Assembly: GCA_964482155.1 (NCBI GenBank)
Contig: CAYZWM010000005.1
Coordinates: 1-44,016 of the forward strand
Source of the DNA: an uncultured Chitinophagaceae bacterium
GTDB taxonomy: Bacteria; Bacteroidota; Bacteroidia; NS11-12g; UBA9320
Direction: 5' to 3'
Length of the DNA stretch: 44,016 nt
The position numbers and the translations under genes were made by a program. The notes beneath the pieces were generated by a model. It was not told the DNA's origin, searched no databases, and saw only the letters and a list, made by a program, of their open reading frames with translations. Numbering within the stretch: the stretch's first letter is position 1; each line of letters opens with the position of its first letter. This document shows positions 3,150 through 25,972 of the stretch, in pieces.

Positions 3150-3221
3150 ACAGTCTACACGTCTATAAATCAAAACATCTAAAGATCAAAACATCTAAAA
3201 ATCTATAAGTCTAAACATCCT
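3150..3221. repeat. Degenerate 8-bp tandem array (about 9 units, consensus nAnnTCWA)
   Basis: acagtcta cacgtcta taaatcaa aacatcta aagatcaa aacatcta aaaatcta taagtcta aacatcct; overlaps the mscS stop codon. Confidence 0.7.
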
Positions 3222-4029
3222 TATGCACGTGTACGTCCATTTGAGGGAATGGAATATTCAAGCCAGCCTTACCGAAGTTTTTATAAACCTCTTCGTTTAG
3301 GCGGAAGTAAACGTCCCAAAAATCTTCATTTTTAGCCCAGGCTCTTACCGTAAAATTAACCGAACTGTCCGCCAGTTCAGACACAGCGATAAATAGTTTT
3401 TCAGGTTTTTCCAGTATTCTCGGATCTGATTGGCATAAGTTTTTAATCACCTCACGGGCTTTATCAACGTCATCGCCGTATGCAATTCCCACAGTCCAAT
3501 CAACTCGTCTAAACGATCCAGGCGTGTAATTTACCATCGACGAATTGGAGAGCCCTCCGTTAGGAATAATTATTTTTCTGAAATCCAACGTTTCTAAAAT
3601 CGTATTGAAAATTTGAATCTCTTTTACAAAGCCTTCATGATCTTGTGCCTGAATAAAGTCACCCACTTTAAACGGTTTAAATATCAAAATCATGACACCA
3701 CCCGCAAAGTTTTGAAGTGTTCCGGACAACGCCAAACCAACGGCCAATCCGGCTGCACCCAAAAAAGCAATAAAAGAGGTCATCTCAATGCCAAGCATGG
3801 TGAGCACACTTATAACCAACAGCACTTTGAGCATGGTGCTTACAAGACTTTTAAGAAACGGACGTAAGGATACATCAATTTTGCGTTTGTCAAGAATTTT
3901 GCTAAAGCCTTTGTTGGTGAGTTTAATAACCCAACTTCCAATAAGAAGTACGGTCATAGCTCCAATAAGCTTTGTGCCATAAGTGATGGACAATTCGGCT
4001 ACTTGTTCAATAATCTGATTGACGTTCAT
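3211..4029 (-). CDS. mscS: Small-conductance mechanosensitive channel
   Basis: GAAGLAVGLALSGTLQNFAGGVMILIFKPFKVGDFI, IPNG, RRVDWTVGIAY, LADSSVNF, IPFPQMDVH. Confidence 0.97.
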   Translation of the reverse strand: MNVNQIIEQVAELSITYGTKLIGAMTVLLIGSWVIKLTNKGFSKILDKRKIDVSLRPFLKSLVSTMLKVLLVISVLTMLGIEMTSFIAFLGAAGLAVGLALSGTLQNFAGGVMILIFKPFKVGDFIQAQDHEGFVKEIQIFNTILETLDFRKIIIPNGGLSNSSMVNYTPGSFRRVDWTVGIAYGDDVDKAREVIKNLCQSDPRILEKPEKLFIAVSELADSSVNFTVRAWAKNEDFWDVYFRLNEEVYKNFGKAGLNIPFPQMDVHVHKDV

Positions 4030-4254
4030 AAAAGGTGTTTTGATACAAAAGAATGCATAATAAAATAGGGCTGGACCAGATTGATCTTTTTTTCGAATCT
4101 AAAAAGACCCTCATGGAAAGTGAAACTCCTTCAATTCCAAGTTTTTAAGGTGTAAAAACGGGTCTGGAATTGAGGTAATTAAAGCAGTTGTCTTGAATTC
4201 GGTACTGATGCTAAACATACCAGGTCTAAAAGACGTACAGGATTAAAAGTTTAA

Positions 4255-4345
4255 CTACTGGCAGATTAAACACAGCACTTAAATGCGAAAACAGTACGGT
4301 TGTCAAAACAAGGAGAAATGACGGTCAAATATGGATGATATTTGT
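4255..4345 (+). promoter_or_regulatory. Putative activator-dependent promoter of sRNA-1 (21-bp-period hexamers plus GATATTTG -7 variant)
   Basis: ctactg(4255), cactta(4276), cggttg(4297); G of TTTG at 4344, 47 nt from the proximal hexamer; same geometry as the two minus-strand promoters. Confidence 0.5.
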
Positions 4346-4349
4346 TCCA

Positions 4350-4491
4350 ATTACTATTCATCTCAAGAGTCAGTTAGATTTGGTACAAAGGCCAAATGTT
4401 TTGAGGAATTATTGGTATTAAGGATGTAAAATAATACTATTTTGTAATTGAGTTACGCGACTTGGGGGGGGTGTCAAAACCCCCTTTTTTT
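4350..4491 (+). ncRNA. Candidate small RNA 1 (about 140 nt; 5' end approximate)
   Basis: Nested stems ctcaaga(4362)/ttttgag(4399) and atttggt(4378)/gccaaat(4391); hairpin tggtatta(4413)/taatacta(4432); GAGTTACGCGAC; terminator; no credible ORF. Confidence 0.55.
4464..4491 (+). terminator. Intrinsic terminator of sRNA-1
   Basis: gggggt-gtcaaa-accccc followed by T7. Confidence 0.8.
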
Positions 4492-4598
4492 ATGCTTCAT
4501 ACGTTGTCGCTGACAATATGTTGTCAATTTATATATCAGTGTTAAGTTTTTGTAAAGGTGACCGTTTAAATGAAGGAGAGGTGTTGCCTGAATTTGAG

Positions 4599-4625
4599 AA
4601 AAAAAATGGGGGCTTTGTGCCCCCA
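4599..4625 (-). terminator. Intrinsic terminator of sRNA-2
   Basis: Minus strand tgggggc-acaaa-gccccca followed by T8. Confidence 0.85.
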
Positions 4626-4729
4626 CGTCGCGTGTTTAACTCTTAAATTCTAATGTATTAGGTCTTAGGTCTTAAGAATCAAGTCTGTCCGAAGTTTGCC
4701 GTGCGAGCAGCATTTTTCGAACCGTAGTC
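4599..4729 (-). ncRNA. Candidate small RNA 2 (about 130 nt; 5' end approximate)
   Basis: Minus strand nested stems gttcgaa/ttcggac and tgctg/cggca; taagacc direct repeat; GAGTTAAACACGCGAC then terminator; only a 13-codon ORF. Confidence 0.6.
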
Positions 4730-4733
4730 TATG

Positions 4734-4824
4734 ACAAAGTAAGGCTATAAATTGAAGCCCAAATCAGGATATATTGCAAGTGCGGTAGTTTTGTTCTTAG
4801 TCGAATGGAATATGCTTTTATGTG
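4734..4824 (-). promoter_or_regulatory. Putative activator-dependent promoter of sRNA-2
   Basis: Minus strand cacata(4824), cgacta(4803), cacttgcaatat(4782), then ttactttgt with the G at 4735 (47 nt). Confidence 0.55.
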
Positions 4825-4908
4825 TTTGTAAAGAATGGTTAACTGCGTAGATGATTTAATTGATTGCCGTTTGAAACACAAAATTCAAGTTACCGGCAGT
4901 CAGAAAAT

Positions 4909-4937
4909 AAAAAAAAAAGGGTCATATCCCATGACCC
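4909..4937 (-). terminator. Intrinsic terminator of sRNA-3
   Basis: Minus strand gggtcat-gggat-atgaccc followed by T10. Confidence 0.85.
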
Positions 4938-5019
4938 CTTTAAGCTGTTATGAAGCATTACATTGAAGTAGGCCTGATTTACTTAGGCCCTAAAGATTAA
5001 ACCCTAATAGCTGTAATGC
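4909..5019 (-). ncRNA. Candidate small RNA 3 (about 110 nt)
   Basis: 8-bp closing stem GCATTACA(5019-5012)/TGTAATGC(4962-4955) enclosing two small hairpins, then a terminator; no protein gene lies upstream or downstream on this strand. Confidence 0.6.
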
Positions 5020-5022
5020 GTC

Positions 5023-5113
5023 ACAAATATCTATGAATTTATGCCTTGAAACTGATCAAATATGGCAAGTGATTACATTTGTTTGCTAGTTGTTGTTATT
5101 TCATTAATAAGTG
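5023..5113 (-). promoter_or_regulatory. Putative activator-dependent promoter of sRNA-3
   Basis: Minus strand cactta(5113), caacta(5092), cacttgccatat(5071), then gatatttgt with the G at 5024 (47 nt). Confidence 0.55.
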
Positions 5114-5403
5114 TCGTAAATGAGGCTGTTTCCTTTGCGTGTCCACTTCGGAAGAGCAGCATTGTTCTCGATATATAGAGAGGTATTTGACGAAACAGAA
5201 TAGTCTGGGCACCAGAGTCGATGCTGTCCTTATAAGTCGAACTGACATTGTAATTAATTGTTTCTCTCCTACGCGTATCCGCTTCGGCAGAGCACAGCAT
5301 TGGATAAGCAAATTTTGTGATTTTGCCATGATACGAAACAGATCTCCGCTACATATCTTTGAGACTTCAAATCGTTACCAGTTGATTAATTCATCAAGAC
5401 CAT

Positions 5404-5430
5404 TGTAACTTCCTTATGCTTCATTCTATT
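5404..5430 (+). promoter_or_regulatory. Putative autoregulatory ECF sigma promoter TGTAACT-N13-TTCTATT
   Basis: AAC-containing -35 typical of ECF promoters, ending 11 nt before the sigma ATG; identical boxes and spacing recur at 9299-9325. Confidence 0.75.
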
Positions 5431-5441
5431 TACAGAAGAAC

Positions 5442-5930
5442 ATGACCATTAACGAGTTTAAAAAGGTTGTAGGCGATCTGGGGCCAAGGCTCTTACAATT
5501 TGGTGAGTACCAGGTGGGAGACATCGATGTGGCTAAGGACCTGGTACAGGAAAGTTTTGTCGTATTACTTGACAAAAGAGATGATGTGGAAGTGCCCAAA
5601 GCCAAGGCGTTTTTGTTTGCCGTTCTGACAAACAAAACCCGAGACCATTTTAAACTCAAAAAGAAGCAGGTTGAAGTTCAGGATTACCATCGAATAGAAG
5701 AAAATAGTCAAGGTGTTCTGGACAGTAAAGAATTGGTTAAAATGGCATTAGGGAAACTCAAGGAACGTGATAAAAACCTTATTTGCCTTAGAGACCTTGA
5801 AGGGTATGCCTACGAAGAGATTGCTGAAAAAATGGAATTGAGTTTAACCCAGGTAAAAGTATACTTGTTTAGAGCCAGAAAGGCGTTCAAAAACGAGATT
5901 ATTAAACTTGAAGTGGAGGTGCGATTATGA
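5442..5930 (+). CDS. ECF-family RNA polymerase sigma-70 factor
   Basis: AKDLVQESF (region 2), AKAFLFAVLTNKTRDH, LRDLEGYAYEEIAEKMELSLTQVKVYLFRARK (region 4). Confidence 0.95.
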   Translation: MTINEFKKVVGDLGPRLLQFGEYQVGDIDVAKDLVQESFVVLLDKRDDVEVPKAKAFLFAVLTNKTRDHFKLKKKQVEVQDYHRIEENSQGVLDSKELVKMALGKLKERDKNLICLRDLEGYAYEEIAEKMELSLTQVKVYLFRARKAFKNEIIKLEVEVRL

Positions 5931-6811
5931 AATTAGATCTACAAAATTACGAATCGGTGTTTTTCAATTTACTGGAAGGAAACTACAGTGAGGTTGAAGA
6001 AGAACGGCTGTTCGAAGAGATAGAAAATGATCCGTTTCTTCGATTTGAATGGGAAAACTGGCAAAAAACCAAACTGGTTGACCAGTCCGATCAATATGCT
6101 CAGAAATATGGTGTTTTTTTTGATACCATAAAGGAGGAATCCGATGTTGTTGTCATGCCTAAACGTATGGACTCCAAAAAAGTATGGAGATTAATCCCAT
6201 TAATGACAACTCTAGCAGCCAGTATCGTTATTTTCTTTTTTGTGGTGCGTAATAATCAAAATCAAACCATCGAGTCTAACCCAATTGTCGTTAACGAAAC
6301 ATTGAACGAAGTAAGTGAAGATGCCTCCGTTATTGAGCAAGATGAGGTTAACGAAATAGAAGTAAACGTTGCTGCTCCTTCAACAATATCAGTTGAGGAC
6401 CCACAGGACAATTTGGGAGTCAAAGATGTTAAGCCGAAGGTGGCATTTGTTGCGCTAGCGAATGAAGAAGTTCGCCCAAAGCAATTGTCTCAGCGTCTAA
6501 CGGATACCACACAACGTATTCAAAGTTTGCCCTTGGTAAAGGTTTATGGTTTGGTGAATGTGGGTGAATTGACTCAGGATGTAGTCTTGGAAAAGACACC
6601 AGCAAAACCTAAATATAAAAGAACATTTACGGTTACAACCGAAGATCTCAAAAGAAAAGAAGTGGTGCTCACCAGAAATGAGATCGAAAATACGAGTTGG
6701 AGAAAACTTCTGGAAGACAAAACCATTCGATTGGTTTGGATTGGTAATAAAACCTACCTCCGTTTGGAGTCGTTCGATTCAGAACCTGTTCTTATCGGAT
6801 TGCAGGAGTAA
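5927..6811 (+). CDS. Putative membrane-anchored anti-sigma factor
   Basis: ATGA overlap with the sigma gene; N-terminal NYESVFFNLLEGNYS anti-sigma-like segment; single TM (TTLAASIVIFFFVV); acidic linker. Confidence 0.75.
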   Translation: MKLDLQNYESVFFNLLEGNYSEVEEERLFEEIENDPFLRFEWENWQKTKLVDQSDQYAQKYGVFFDTIKEESDVVVMPKRMDSKKVWRLIPLMTTLAASIVIFFFVVRNNQNQTIESNPIVVNETLNEVSEDASVIEQDEVNEIEVNVAAPSTISVEDPQDNLGVKDVKPKVAFVALANEEVRPKQLSQRLTDTTQRIQSLPLVKVYGLVNVGELTQDVVLEKTPAKPKYKRTFTVTTEDLKRKEVVLTRNEIENTSWRKLLEDKTIRLVWIGNKTYLRLESFDSEPVLIGLQE

Positions 6812-7334: not shown

Positions 7335-9176
7335 ATGAAAAAGAAATTTGGCTTTGATTTTTCAAACCTCAAAGGAGATATTTTTGGGGGATTAACGGCA
7401 GGTATTGTGGCACTTCCACTTGCACTTGCTTTCGGTGTGAGTTCCGGACTTGGTCCAAGTGCAGGACTTTATGGTGCCATATTTGTTGGGTTTTTTGCCG
7501 CTTTATTTGGAGGAACCAACACACAGATATCCGGTCCTACAGCTCCAATGACGGCCGTAAGTATGGTCGTTATTGCAGGCATCCTTGGCGCTTTTGATGG
7601 CAACATTAGTGAAGCTTTGCCCATAATTATGACGGTCTTCTTAATGGCTGGACTCATTCAAATTGGCCTAGGTGCAATGGGGTTAGGAGCCTTTATTAAA
7701 TACATACCCTACCCAGTGGTTTCTGGGTTTATGACCGCCATTGGAGTCATCATATTGATTACTCAGTTGCTTCCATCTGTTGGATATTACCCAAAAGAAG
7801 ATGCAGCCTATGTGGCGCAGTTCAAGCCTCAGGCAGAGGAAGTTTTGCTCGACAAGATTCTTCGGGATGAAATGGGGGAAGATATTCTTGTGCTTGAAGA
7901 TTTTCGTGAAACAATAAGCCGAGCGAATATGATCACTGAAGAAGAGATTTTTATAGAATCTCAAACGCTGGCAAGTAATGAAGCTTCAGGTGTGATCGGT
8001 ACACTCAAAGTACTTCCTCGCGCTTTCAGGAATATCAATTGGCTGGAATTACTTCTCGCCCTGGGCACCATAGTCATTATTTATGGATTTCGAAGAATAA
8101 CCAGAGCCATTCCAAGTACGTTGGTTGCTTTACTGGTCATGTCTGGGATATCCGTTGGTTTTGGCCTGGATTATCGACCCATTGAGCAAATTCCGACAGG
8201 CCTTCCCATACCCTATCTGAGCATATTTACGGGCTTTAAGCTAGGTGCTGTTACGCCCTATATTTTTACGGCAATAACGTTGGCTTTTCTGGGTGCCATT
8301 GATTCGTTGCTCACCTCTGTGGTAGCCGACAATATGACCAAGACCGTCCACAAGCCGAACAAAGAACTGGTTGGACAAGGTATTGGTAACAGTATCGCGG
8401 CAATTTTTGGTGGAATTCCTGGTGCTGGAGCTACTATTCGAACGGTAGTGAATATCCGTGCTGGTGGAAAAACCCGGTTGTCTGGAATGGTAGCTGGTTT
8501 ACTTTTACTGGTTATCATGTTGTCGCTTGGCCCAATTGCGTCCCAAATACCAGCAGCTGTTTTGGCTGGAATATTAATAACCGTTGGCTTGGGGGTAATC
8601 GATTACAAAGGCCTTCGCGCTTTGCCGTTTATGGCACGGCCCGAAGCCGTTATATTGGTTGTGGTATTGGTGCTATCTTCGGTCTGGAACCTGGTTTATG
8701 CAGTGGGCATCGGTCTGGTTATCGCCTCTCTCATTTTTATGAAAAAGATTGGTGATTTATCGGCAGAGGGTTCGGAAGTGAAGTCACTTGAAAAAGAAAA
8801 GGCGTGGGCGGATGAAGTCAATTTTCCAAAGAACCTGAGGGACAAAGTATTTATTAAACACTTTGAAGGACCTCTGTTTTTTGGATCAACAACTGATTTT
8901 ACGCGTTTAGCTAAACAGATTCCAGATTCGGCCTCAACCGTAATCATACGTATGGATAAAATCCCATATATGGATCAATCGGGTTTATATGCCATTGAAG
9001 ACGTGGTTATTGATTTGGTCAAAAACGATAAAAAAGTTCTATTGGTCGACGTCGTAAAGCAGCCGCTTTATATGCTGGAACGAATAGACATTATACCGGT
9101 TTTAGTACCGCGCGAACAGGTTTTTTCAAGTTTTGGGGATTGCCTGGAATGGGTTGAGGACAATGTAAAAAAATAG
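7335..9176 (+). CDS. sulP: SulP/SLC26 anion (probably bicarbonate) transporter with STAS domain
   Basis: GDIFGGLTAGIVALPLALAFG, QISGPTAPM, IKYIPYPVVSGF, DSLLT, NKELVGQGIGN, GAGATIRT, STAS GPLFFGS / YMDQSG. Confidence 0.96.
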   Translation: MKKKFGFDFSNLKGDIFGGLTAGIVALPLALAFGVSSGLGPSAGLYGAIFVGFFAALFGGTNTQISGPTAPMTAVSMVVIAGILGAFDGNISEALPIIMTVFLMAGLIQIGLGAMGLGAFIKYIPYPVVSGFMTAIGVIILITQLLPSVGYYPKEDAAYVAQFKPQAEEVLLDKILRDEMGEDILVLEDFRETISRANMITEEEIFIESQTLASNEASGVIGTLKVLPRAFRNINWLELLLALGTIVIIYGFRRITRAIPSTLVALLVMSGISVGFGLDYRPIEQIPTGLPIPYLSIFTGFKLGAVTPYIFTAITLAFLGAIDSLLTSVVADNMTKTVHKPNKELVGQGIGNSIAAIFGGIPGAGATIRTVVNIRAGGKTRLSGMVAGLLLLVIMLSLGPIASQIPAAVLAGILITVGLGVIDYKGLRALPFMARPEAVILVVVLVLSSVWNLVYAVGIGLVIASLIFMKKIGDLSAEGSEVKSLEKEKAWADEVNFPKNLRDKVFIKHFEGPLFFGSTTDFTRLAKQIPDSASTVIIRMDKIPYMDQSGLYAIEDVVIDLVKNDKKVLLVDVVKQPLYMLERIDIIPVLVPREQVFSSFGDCLEWVEDNVKK

Positions 9177-23008: not shown

Positions 23009-25972
23009 ATGACTAAAGAACGGTTCATGAAAACCACCCAAGCTAATGTGTTGAGACTTGTTGTCGTATTGATTTTTTGTACGCAATGTTTTGCATCCGT
23101 TGTCGGTCAGAGCGTACGGATGTTGACGGATTTTACACCGTCAAATAACACTTTCCTGGGCTCAAATCCGCATAACTTTATTACTGTTGGAGACGTGGTT
23201 TATTACGGAGCGTCGTCCTATCAAGGTGGGGTGGAACTCTGGAGAACCGACGGAACGCCCGAAGGGACGTTTCTCTTAGAGGATTTTGGCGTTCAGCAGT
23301 ATCCAAATTTTACCACCATAATAGGGTATCGCAATCGAATTTACATGGGGGTTTATACGCCCGACTATGGCAACGAATTATGGGTCTCCAATGGGCAACC
23401 AGGAGATGCGCAAATGTTGATCGACCTCTTTCCAGGAATGGAATCAGCTAATATAAGGGAGCTAACTATTTTTAAAGACGCTTTGTATTTTACGGCGAAT
23501 GCCGGAATATCTGGTCGTGAACTTTGGAAAACCGATGGGACGCCCCAGGGAACACAAGTAGTCGATGTCCCTCCAGGACAAGGAGGGTTTAATCCATCTT
23601 ACCTTATTTCTACCGAGTCTCATCTATACTTAAGAAGCAGCGCTGGGTCACCATCTTATCCCAGACTATGGGTAAGTGATGGTACTGCCGGGAACACTCA
23701 TGTGGTCAAAATATTTAACCCTGGGCTTCCTGATCGTTTTTCCAGTTTGACCCCGGTAGGGAGTGATTTATATTTTACCATTCAGGATGAAACACGTGCT
23801 TTCTCAACATTGTGGAAGACCGACGGCTCCGAACAAGGTACGTACCAGATCGAAAACATCACGTTCTCCAGGTCAACCAACTTTCTAACGGCAATCGACG
23901 ATACGGTTTTCTGTTTGACCGACAACAAGGGTTTAGGCCAGGTATTATGGAGAACCGACGGAACCGATAGCGGAACGTATTTGGTGAAAGATATTAATAA
24001 GGGAATGAACACAAATGTAGCAAATTCACCTACGGTGGTGTTTCAAAACAACCTCTATTTTATAGGAAACGATGGTAAGGTCGGGTTTGAGTTATGGAAG
24101 ACAGATGGTAGCTCAGAAAACACCACGTTGGTAAAAGACATTTTGGAAAACAATACGAATAATTACGGTGCCCGAGGTTATTTCTTAGCTCTGGACAGCG
24201 TATTGTTGTTTTCAGGGCAAAATAAGGTCAATGATTCTGAACTTTGGGCCACAGACGGGTCTGAATCAGGTACCCGTCTGGTGAAAGATCTGAATGTATC
24301 CGGACAGGGAAGCCCATATGGGTTTTATAGCATTAAGGACAAAGCCCTTTTCGTTGCTAACGATGGTGTTCATGGACAAGAATTATGGATTACAGATGGC
24401 ACCAACAGTGGGACATATTTGCTAAAAGATATGCGTCACACCTCAGAAGATACCAACCCATTTGATTTTACGTCGGTGGGTGAGGATGTCTTTTTTATTG
24501 CTCGAATCAACAATGAATTCGAGTTAATGAAAACGGATGGAACGGAAATGGGCACGGATTTCGCTTTCGATACGTCAGTAGTTCAAGACGTAATCCATCC
24601 AGAGGATTTGACAGGGTTTAATGGGAGTCTACTAATTGCAGCTCAAACTCCCGAGGTGGGACTCGAGTTATGGCAGTCGGACGGGACCATCGCGAACACC
24701 AATCTTATTAAAGATTTTATGCCGGGAAGTGAATCTTCATTTCCAGGTTTCTTTACTGAGATGAAGGACGCATTGTACTTCAGGATCATTAATTCTTTCA
24801 ATAACCAAACCATGCTTTACAAGACCCAGGGTACAACAAAGTCTACGGAATTGGTCAAGTCACTTTGGGGTGAAAATAAAACATCGTCAATGTGGGATTT
24901 GGTGACCACGGGGGATAAGCTGTTTTATATCATGGAGACTTTTGAATATGGGGCAGAACTTTATGTAAGCGATGGTTCAGAATTTGGTAGCAAAATGGTA
25001 GCAGATTTATGTGGGGGAGGGTGTTCAGGTATCGAACGTTCTACGACGTTATTTGCGCATGGCGGTGTCGTGTATTTTTCGGCGTCAGGTTATGGGCTTG
25101 GTTACGAATTGTGGAGGAGCGATGGTACAAAAAAGGGCACGTTCATGGTTAAAGATGTTAGATCTGGTTCCCAAAGCGGCCAACCCAGAATCGTTGGAAG
25201 TTTAAATGGGAACGTTTATTTTTCCGCCTATAAGGATAATTATGGTAGGGAGCTGTGGTTGACCAATGGAACCCCTAATGGTACTCGTTTGGTTCGTGAT
25301 ATTGCTATCGGCAAACAGTCATCAAATCCCGGAAAAGGAATTGTTGTGGGAGACCGATTGATTTTTCAAGCAAATGATAGAAAAGTAGGCTCAGAATTGT
25401 GGGTAACGGATGGAACACAAGAAGGAACTGTGTTGGTTAAAGATATTTCCCCTGGACTATGGCACTCAAATCCGAACGACTTCGTTGTGTTGAACGATAC
25501 GGCTTATTTTGTGGCGCATACATACGAATTTGGTATGGAACTTTGGAAAACAGACGGGACATCCAAAAATACCAAATTGGTTAAAGATATTTCCGTGGGC
25601 TACGCTTCTTCTAATCCAGGAGGGTTCGCAGTGATAAAGAACCGACTTTATTTTTCGGCTTATCATTTGGATTTTGGTCGGGAGGTTTTCTATTTAACTG
25701 ACCCAAATGCAAAACCAGAACCACCAATTCAGACTTCGGACGATGGACTTCGTATATTTCCAAACCCAGTCAACGATGTGCTTATGGTTTCCTGGGATGA
25801 CTCCAATATCGAATCAACAACGTTTATACAAATTATGGATATGACAGGTCGATTTGTTCATGCCGAAACGGTTAACGAAACGGAAGCATTTATTCCAATA
25901 AGTCATTTGTGTTCAGGTACTTATGTTGTTCACGTGTACGGCCAGGGGGCTCAGAAGTTTATAAAATACTAA
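23009..25972 (+). CDS. ELWxxDGT-repeat surface protein with type A T9SS CTD
   Basis: About 17 ELWxxDGT-type repeats (ELWRTDGT, ELWKTDGT, ELWITDGT...); CTD IFPNPV...MDMTGRFV...GTYVV...QKFIKY. Confidence 0.95.
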   Translation: MTKERFMKTTQANVLRLVVVLIFCTQCFASVVGQSVRMLTDFTPSNNTFLGSNPHNFITVGDVVYYGASSYQGGVELWRTDGTPEGTFLLEDFGVQQYPNFTTIIGYRNRIYMGVYTPDYGNELWVSNGQPGDAQMLIDLFPGMESANIRELTIFKDALYFTANAGISGRELWKTDGTPQGTQVVDVPPGQGGFNPSYLISTESHLYLRSSAGSPSYPRLWVSDGTAGNTHVVKIFNPGLPDRFSSLTPVGSDLYFTIQDETRAFSTLWKTDGSEQGTYQIENITFSRSTNFLTAIDDTVFCLTDNKGLGQVLWRTDGTDSGTYLVKDINKGMNTNVANSPTVVFQNNLYFIGNDGKVGFELWKTDGSSENTTLVKDILENNTNNYGARGYFLALDSVLLFSGQNKVNDSELWATDGSESGTRLVKDLNVSGQGSPYGFYSIKDKALFVANDGVHGQELWITDGTNSGTYLLKDMRHTSEDTNPFDFTSVGEDVFFIARINNEFELMKTDGTEMGTDFAFDTSVVQDVIHPEDLTGFNGSLLIAAQTPEVGLELWQSDGTIANTNLIKDFMPGSESSFPGFFTEMKDALYFRIINSFNNQTMLYKTQGTTKSTELVKSLWGENKTSSMWDLVTTGDKLFYIMETFEYGAELYVSDGSEFGSKMVADLCGGGCSGIERSTTLFAHGGVVYFSASGYGLGYELWRSDGTKKGTFMVKDVRSGSQSGQPRIVGSLNGNVYFSAYKDNYGRELWLTNGTPNGTRLVRDIAIGKQSSNPGKGIVVGDRLIFQANDRKVGSELWVTDGTQEGTVLVKDISPGLWHSNPNDFVVLNDTAYFVAHTYEFGMELWKTDGTSKNTKLVKDISVGYASSNPGGFAVIKNRLYFSAYHLDFGREVFYLTDPNAKPEPPIQTSDDGLRIFPNPVNDVLMVSWDDSNIESTTFIQIMDMTGRFVHAETVNETEAFIPISHLCSGTYVVHVYGQGAQKFIKY

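Follow-up and report, generated by a model that had tools for sequence, protein, structure and literature searches.

Why should a gap between two divergently transcribed genes contain three strong intrinsic terminators that no protein gene precedes? The question is raised by a stretch of DNA of 44,016 nt (the window) from a marine uncultured Bacteroidota bacterium, in which an intergenic gap (4030-5441) separates an mscS gene (3211-4029, minus strand), whose product has four MscS Pfam domains, from a gene for a sigma factor of the extracytoplasmic function (ECF) type (5442-5930, plus strand). A preliminary description of this DNA had proposed that three small RNAs (sRNAs) under one activator are hidden in the gap. 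Our analysis suggests that the gap is a cluster of related small RNA genes; this is the best-supported reading, and we put its probability at about 0.55. The comparative anatomy of the locus supports small non-coding units, while their expression is predicted from sequence. We label these units U1 (plus strand), U2 and U3 (both minus strand), with terminators T1, T2 and T3, and use E0 for a fourth unit found in two relatives. The window is contig C5 of a genome bin (G000) of 4.26 Mb in 421 contigs with 40% GC, and the loci with which it was compared are L038 of genome G002 and L039 of genome G007, units and boxes being counted per gap.

Terminators are in clear excess at this locus. Five terminator-like sites were found in 3900-5500, three strong and two weak, against 1.0±1.0 in 50 shuffles. 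The three strong ones lie where the preliminary description had placed them and follow no protein gene. Each unit thus ends in a 3' intrinsic terminator, as a canonical intergenic sRNA does, and all three terminators are kept in G007. A crude census of G000 counted 305 strict intrinsic terminators, of which 64 are orphan (not inside or just after an open reading frame [ORF] of at least 80 aa), with seven adjacent orphan pairs within 600 nt, which hints at further sRNA-like units elsewhere; this census missed T1 and misfiled T3, and its figures are therefore a rough base rate only.

There is no credible ORF in the gap. The frames present there are only 31-50 aa long, and none of eight window ORFs tested has a Pfam match even at E<=1. 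These short frames, together with the convergence of U1 and U2, could point to small-protein genes or a type I toxin-antitoxin pair within the units. However, the frames lack Pfam matches and, as judged by eye, are not conserved between G000 and G007 (at U2 a frame of 13 aa stands against an unrelated open frame), while one frame of 42 aa (4518-4646) gains a stop through a G>T change at 4575 in a strain variant (also read by eye). Moreover, 108 nt lie between the terminators of U1 and U2, which would leave no overlap between the two transcripts. We regard coding or toxin-antitoxin functions as extremely improbable. The preliminary description had also not recognized the units as a known RNA family, and this was borne out: the Rfam 15 covariance models gave no match at gathering score in the whole window, the best sub-threshold match in the gap being a terminator-driven one to sraA (29.3 bits versus a gathering score of 56), and none at E<=1 in the G002 and G007 loci, save a tRNA in locus L040.

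Judging from the positions of the TTTGT cores upstream of the terminators, U1 would give an RNA of about 145 nt that starts near 4350, U2 one of about 130 nt from near 4729, and U3 one of about 115 nt from near 5019, in agreement with the earlier proposal. A bare TTTG is weak evidence by itself, because it is frequent in DNA of 40% GC, but these boxes gain weight from their conservation in relatives. In U3, a closing stem, P1, pairs 5019-5012 with 4962-4955 (8 bp) and encloses a variable interior that differs in length by 27 nt between G000 and G007. Stem P1 is followed by a 13-nt linker, UUCAUAACAGCUU (4954-4942), that is unpaired and invariant between these two genomes. Among the 19 pairs of the consensus structure of U3 from G000 and G007, one is compensatory, three have one-sided changes and none is broken; the closing stem contains one AU-to-GC compensatory pair and one GC-to-GU change. 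U2 has an unpaired linker, YGCGACGU, ahead of the stem of T2, and both its 5' and 3' blocks are kept in G007. The 3' module of U1 consists of GAGTTACGCGAC and terminator T1. When fold energies were compared with those of 200 shuffles, none of the shuffles was as stable as U2 (z -4.62) or U3 (z -3.42).

Conservation of the locus follows the same anatomy. A close mscS orthologue is present in three of ten congeneric genomes (80% aa identity in G002, 74% in G007 and 67% in G003; the others reach at most 48%), and parts of the locus are kept beside it in two of the ten, G002 and G007, both of which retain the TPMT-mscS-gap arrangement. G007 has all three terminators in the order and orientation seen in the window, including a 49-nt block that is 92% identical to 4913-4961. 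G002 retains T1 with the preceding GAGTTATGCGAC motif and a decayed 3' end of U2, plus unit E0. When the gaps of G000 and G007 were aligned globally, identity peaked at 4619-4661 (the 3' end of U2), 4724-4751 (the box and 5' end of U2) and 4898-5038 (the whole of U3 with its box). Conservation is thus concentrated at the ends of the units. At the 5' end it takes in the TTTG box and the bases just downstream, and at the 3' end the final 40-50 nt, where it covers the terminator and some 20 nt before it; the interiors vary.

Wider searches returned little beyond these genomes. Among 66 family genomes, a covariance model of U3 (R1) matched convincingly only in G000 and G007; weak matches in G008 and G049 were rejected as terminator-driven, non-homologous look-alikes. 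The same model was run against 80 of 160 mscS-linked loci (80 from genome contigs and 80 from metagenome contigs, with mscS identity of <=70%), plus L038-L040 and the window, and none of the 80 matched at E<0.2. A DNA search across 41 genomes found only G007, with a 48-nt match, and an exact 20-mer of U3 had no match in metagenome contigs. A strain-variant contig from DNA runs covers 4117-4933 with eight substitutions, none inside the predicted RNAs (six fall within 4204-4225 and the others at 4575 and 4590), and with indels at 4450 and 4464 in the U1 3' module; because six of the eight are clustered, this pattern is no significant sign of constraint.

The pattern in relatives also bears on the possibility that the terminators and their flanks are relics, or 3' untranslated region (UTR) ends, of protein genes since lost or relocated, and have no function of their own. 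The content of the gap does differ among the three genomes (a 147-aa ORF in G002, a 169-aa ORF in G007 and an insert of about 6 kb), and G002 keeps merely a decayed 3' end of U2. However, tblastn found no trace of either ORF in the gap or genome of G000 (best E 0.08-1.8 genome-wide), and conservation extends beyond the terminators to promoter-like boxes and 5' ends. In G007, moreover, the ORF stops before the U3 box and -7 element are reached, so there too U3 is provided with promoter-like signals of its own. We consider an origin as leftovers unlikely.

If the gap is a cluster of sRNA genes, are its members related to one another? U1 and U2 have a common 3' module, GAGTTA..YGCGAC..GGGGG plus terminator, arranged as an inverted pair whose arms (4455-4468 and 4620-4633) are 93% complementary; the motif occurs nowhere else in G000. 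The promoter regions of U2 and U3 align without gaps. The 5' part of U1 is homologous to E0: the two align over the -7 box and over a hairpin-loop motif, C.TTCATC, and U1 therefore resembles an E0 head fused to a U1 tail. E0 itself, which is absent as such from G000, has TAGTAGTAG and two hairpins, one of the sequence CCCTT-TTCATCA-AAGGG and the other terminator-like (z -2.96 and -3.10 in the two relatives). By eye, TAC[A/G]G is found 11-16 nt after TTTG at the 5' ends of most units. U1, U2 and U3, with E0, are thus probably paralogous units. The description of the three as siblings is justified as far as this mosaic goes, but it does not extend to the body of U3, which has no sequence in common with U1 or U2. 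No common seed was found either, the linker of U3 differing from that of U1 and U2; the one recurrent element is a UUCAU pentamer, which is present in U3 and in the loop of E0 and U1.

The inverted pair has another possible explanation, namely that 4450-4642 is an insertion resembling a miniature inverted-repeat transposable element (MITE), bounded by the GAGTTA..GCGAC..GGGGG arms. The high complementarity of the arms would fit such an element, as would the adjoining leader of the sigma gene, which is made of interspersed repeats. However, an element of this kind would be expected in multiple copies, and within G000 the motif occurs at this locus only. The region is single copy, since blastn of 4030-5113 against the genome gave only the self-match below E 0.3, and it matched no phage or plasmid. 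The pair is also retained at the syntenic place in G002 and G007. A mobile insertion is very unlikely on these grounds.

The suggestion that one activator controls the set had leaned on the TTTGT core, which is silent on co-regulation because it is the generic -7 element of Bacteroidota sigma-A promoters. A separate upstream box makes a common regulator plausible. CACT[T/A]G[C/T] lies exactly 37 nt 5' of TTTG in five of seven units (U2 and U3 of G000, E0 of G002, and E0 and U3 of G007), and the degenerate proximal box of U1 has this spacing as well. Seven TTTG-anchored promoter segments of 88 nt were aligned by MAFFT without a single gap, giving the consensus GCACTTGTCATAT and GAnATTTGTT. The three gaps contain two, three and three boxes, where composition predicts 0.55, 0.65 and 0.43, and all eight precede a unit and are on the same strand as that unit (one of them, at U1 of G002, with a spacing of 25 nt). 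A 10-mer form of the box has 169 matches in the genome, and in the 62 kb formed by the window, L038 and L039 all six of its occurrences are at unit promoters. In G000 the combination of box, 37 nt and TTTG was matched 14 times, against 3-9 times at ten other spacings. Among the 12 matches away from the locus, 11 lack a good downstream terminator, and most lie in long open frames. The twelfth, near 24044 (plus strand) of contig C28, has a good terminator 162 nt downstream and is maybe a further unit or a gene end. Across the family the box pattern gave 41 matches versus 17 for a reversed control; four are in the locus, and several of the others, inspected by eye, represent the same coding sequence in related genomes. 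Since the box stands at a fixed distance in five of the seven units, a common DNA-binding regulator is plausible, and with it co-regulation of the set.

The nature of such a putative regulator may be indicated by the layout of the sites. Class I activators sit around -50, which is about where the box lies. A second copy of the box is found 21 nt further upstream at E0 of both G002 and G007 (8/11 matches each; chance of at least eight, 0.007) and, less clearly, at U1 of G000 (6/11; chance 0.18). Sites for LytTR regulators consist of two repeats of 9-11 nt with spacers of 11-13 nt (PMC4847170). This layout is present at the two E0 units and weakly at U1 of G000, and is absent at U2 and U3 of G000. 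A parallel is AgrA, whose promoter-proximal repeat lies near -60 at both P2 and P3 (PMC4227749); like the AgrA-P3-RNAIII arrangement, some of the present units combine two direct repeats with a period of about 21 nt, a proximal copy at about -50 to -60, a weak promoter and a regulatory RNA, the last being a prediction here. The resemblance is one of layout only, as LytTR regulators have no common consensus sequence. There are 10 REC-LytTR matches in G000 and 19 in G002, all away from the locus, and one such regulator is encoded near the locus in G007. Two other readings were set aside. The box does not look like a sigma-54 or ECF-type element, since by eye it lacks both a GG/GC pair and a conserved -10 at a distance of 16-17 nt. 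A 9-mer of G002, TTTGTTCCA (L038 3910), which could have been a match to the U1 box, was dropped because chance alone would be expected to produce a common 9-mer, and because it is E0 that stands opposite the U1 box when the syntenic regions are aligned.

Beside the boxes of U2 and U3 stand two perfect TAnnTTTG elements on the opposite strand (Table 1), and GCAAGTG-N2-3-TAnnTTTG occurs at these two sites only in the genome. These elements may thus drive divergent transcription, one of them giving an antisense RNA across U3 and the other serving the sigma operon as its own promoter. This arrangement suggests a further alternative, in which the units act in cis: the terminators would work as attenuators within 5' leaders of great length, or else the units would serve as antisense RNAs or insulators against read-through from the opposite-strand TAnnTTTG. 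U2 and U3 do point at mscS and U1 at the sigma operon, and a transcript from about 4800 (plus strand) would be antisense through U3. However, T2 ends 570 nt before the start of mscS, with U1 on the other strand between them, and T1 ends 950 nt before the start of the sigma gene. The interiors are variable, as the 27-nt indel of U3 illustrates, unlike those of ligand-binding leaders, and a riboswitch or attenuator with a conserved ligand-binding core directly 5' of a regulated gene was not found. The plus-strand -7 box beside the U3 box is, by eye, not conserved in G007. We judge a cis-acting role to be improbable.

Sets of sibling sRNAs under one activator are familiar from other bacteria, examples being Qrr1-5 (controlled by LuxO and sigma-54) and csRNA1-5 (controlled by CiaR). 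The present units are like these in being several short paralogous RNAs, as predicted, each with its own terminator and, in five of the seven, the same upstream box at a fixed distance. Their bodies, however, have diverged much further than those of either set, and they show no obvious common seed. The likeness does not amount to membership of either family, since Rfam gave no match and no sigma-54 element (GG-N10-GC at -24/-12) was seen by eye at the units.

Models also exist within the phylum. A study of Bacteroides thetaiotaomicron gives the -7 consensus as TAnnTTTG and lists 49 intergenic sRNAs with a transcription start site and an intrinsic terminator, of which 27 are strain-specific and whose GC content is about 35% (PMC7366714). 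A narrow range and low GC would therefore be normal for genes of this kind. A multicopy sRNA family, FopS, is also described in the phylum (PMC11697453). The units resemble the B. thetaiotaomicron sRNAs, including FopS and GibS, in the type of -7 element, a length of about 100-150 nt, low GC and an intrinsic terminator (PMC7366714, PMC11697453). They are also like Bacteroides sRNAs in having unpaired conserved stretches, paralogous copies and a narrow range, in a setting of RRM proteins and no Hfq. They are unlike FopS and GibS, as there described, in that there is no sequence or Rfam similarity, the units here are clustered whereas the FopS copies are scattered beside susC genes, the unpaired conserved stretch lies just before the terminator and not at the 5' end, and there is an extra box at about -50. 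The B. thetaiotaomicron sRNAs, moreover, have transcription start sites in that account, whereas the units here are predicted from sequence. Clustered sibling sRNAs with promoters and terminators of their own are a familiar kind of system, and the present units, as probable examples of it, belong to no described RNA family.

How might such a cluster work? We propose that U1, U2 and U3 would be independent sRNA genes, each with a promoter of the sigma-A type (-7 element nAnnTTTG) and its own terminator. They would be diverged paralogues of one ancestral unit, and E0 of the two sister species would belong to the same family. Their common parts would be the box (approximately GCACTTGYnAT, 37 nt before TTTG), the -7 box, the 5' TAC[A/G]G and the terminator, to which U1 and U2 add the 3' module. 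A single DNA-binding regulator, acting on the box at about -50, could turn the whole set on together, and the 21-nt, two-copy layout at E0 and U1 would fit a response regulator of the LytTR type. The RNAs would then act in trans by base pairing, using the unpaired UUCAUAACAGCUU of U3 and YGCGAC of U1 and U2. Help may come from an RNA-binding protein of the RRM type; we propose this because G000 encodes two RRM_1 proteins and has no match to Hfq.

A number of observations weigh against the existence of an sRNA cluster of this kind. The distribution is very narrow, being confined to three species-level genomes (G000, G002 and G007), and across the family the U1/U2 3' motif is found at the locus only in G000 and G002, with a variant in G007. 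With two or three sequences per unit, there are too few for a statistical test of covariation. The fold of U1 is no better than those of shuffles (z -1.33; 23 of 200 as stable). The 169-aa ORF of G007 ends about 90 nt 5' of the U3 box on the same strand and the 147-aa ORF of G002 precedes E0, and because of this a read-through or 3' UTR origin is possible for these units. At the position of the box, U1 of G000 has a degenerate sequence (CGGTTGT) and U2 of G007 has no box; the box could also have descended by duplication without being a binding site. In contrast to AgrA P3, U2 and U3 of G000 have a single good repeat, the distal copy being weak (4-5/11), and neither G000 nor G002 has a REC-LytTR gene linked to the locus. 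When duplexes of the three conserved stretches with 5,705 start regions were scored, they were no better than those of shuffled seeds, in a scan that used crude start-codon windows and seven shuffles per stretch. One candidate pairing, of the U3 linker with the start region of mscS, was discarded as it is, by eye, not conserved in G007. Finally, the three sequencing runs that hold the locus come from one study and are all seawater-metagenome DNA, with none on record as RNA.

A more ambitious version can be imagined, in which the cluster would be a clade-specific sRNA regulon. A response regulator with LytTR-like sites would recognize GCACTTGY at about -50 and wire the RNAs to mscS and to the ECF sigma/anti-sigma pair, in envelope or osmotic stress, as a Bacteroidota counterpart of AgrA-RNAIII or LuxO-Qrr; local duplication of a promoter-terminator cassette would have produced the units, whose bodies would have diverged to new targets. 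We regard this extended scheme as decidedly doubtful. The cluster itself matters for more general reasons. Hardly any regulatory RNAs have been mapped in marine uncultured Bacteroidota, current knowledge being drawn from gut Bacteroides. Young paralogous sRNA-like genes whose bodies diverge although promoter, box, 5' end and terminator are kept may offer a snapshot of the birth and diversification of sRNA families, and the box at a fixed distance is a concrete handle on the putative regulator. The practical weight is limited by the restriction to three species-level genomes and by an uncultured host.

Table 1. Coordinates of the predicted units, their promoter-like signals and terminators, and the opposite-strand promoter-like elements (window positions unless a locus is given)
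Feature	Position	Strand	Remarks
U1 upstream boxes	distal 4275-4285; proximal 4296-4306	+	21 nt apart; distal with GCACTT intact, proximal degenerate; consensus match 6/11 and 7/11
U1 -7-like box GATATTTG	4337-4344	+	aligns with E0 boxes of G002 and G007
U1 predicted RNA, ~145 nt	4350-4494	+	5' TTCATC hairpin-loop motif homologous to E0; 3' module; T1
T1	4464-4494	+	stem 4464-4487; T-run 4488-4494; from terminator scan
U2 upstream box GCACTTGCAAT	4773-4783	-	37 nt 5' of TTTG
U2 -7-like box TTACTTTG	4742-4735	-	CCTT[AC]CTTTGT kept in G007
U2 predicted RNA, ~130 nt	4598-4729	-	5' GACTACGG; two hairpins; T2
T2	4626-4598	-	stem 4626-4606; T-run 4605-4598; from terminator scan
U3 upstream box TCACTTGCCAT	5062-5072	-	37 nt 5' of TTTG; GCACTAGTCAT in G007, same spacing
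U3 -7-like box GATATTTG	5031-5024	-	AGATATTTG identical in G007
U3 predicted RNA, ~115 nt	4906-5020	-	closing stem P1; variable interior; linker; T3
T3	4941-4905	-	stem 4941-4915; T-run 4914-4905; from terminator scan
Perfect TAnnTTTG	4786-4793	+	3 nt from U2 box; possible divergent promoter
Perfect TAnnTTTG	5074-5081	+	2 nt from U3 box; possible sigma-operon promoter, with leader of ~355 nt
E0 of G002	L038 3745-3830	+	box pair; -7 box
E0 of G007	L039 9757-9660	-	box pair; -7 box

The surroundings of the gap have features of their own. Overlapping the stop of the ECF sigma gene, a 294-aa anti-sigma-like ORF (5927-6811, plus strand) comes next; it matches no Pfam family and presumably encodes an undescribed type of anti-sigma factor. 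Relatives of this ORF with 33-48% identity were found only in G002, G007 and G009, and at E<=0.001 six of 11 genomes of the genus have a match, two of them weakly. A type IX secretion system (T9SS) sorting domain is also encoded near the locus. In G007, about 6 kb (L039 2112-8237) is inserted between the sigma gene and U3; the insert encodes the REC-LytTR regulator, a LytS-type histidine kinase and proteins with TPR, T9SS-tail and Peptidase_S74 domains, and L039 has a run of masked bases near 7900-8200. The leader of the sigma gene in the window (5137-5302), which has no Rfam match, is a mosaic of short interspersed repeat modules, such as CTCTCCTACGCGTAACCGCTTCGG..AGAGCA..GCATTG and GATGCTGTC..AAGTCGAACTGACA. 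These modules reappear on at least 15 other contigs of G000, often clustered with further modules, and breaks at 5256-5302 are seen in contigs that belong to other organisms of this metagenome.

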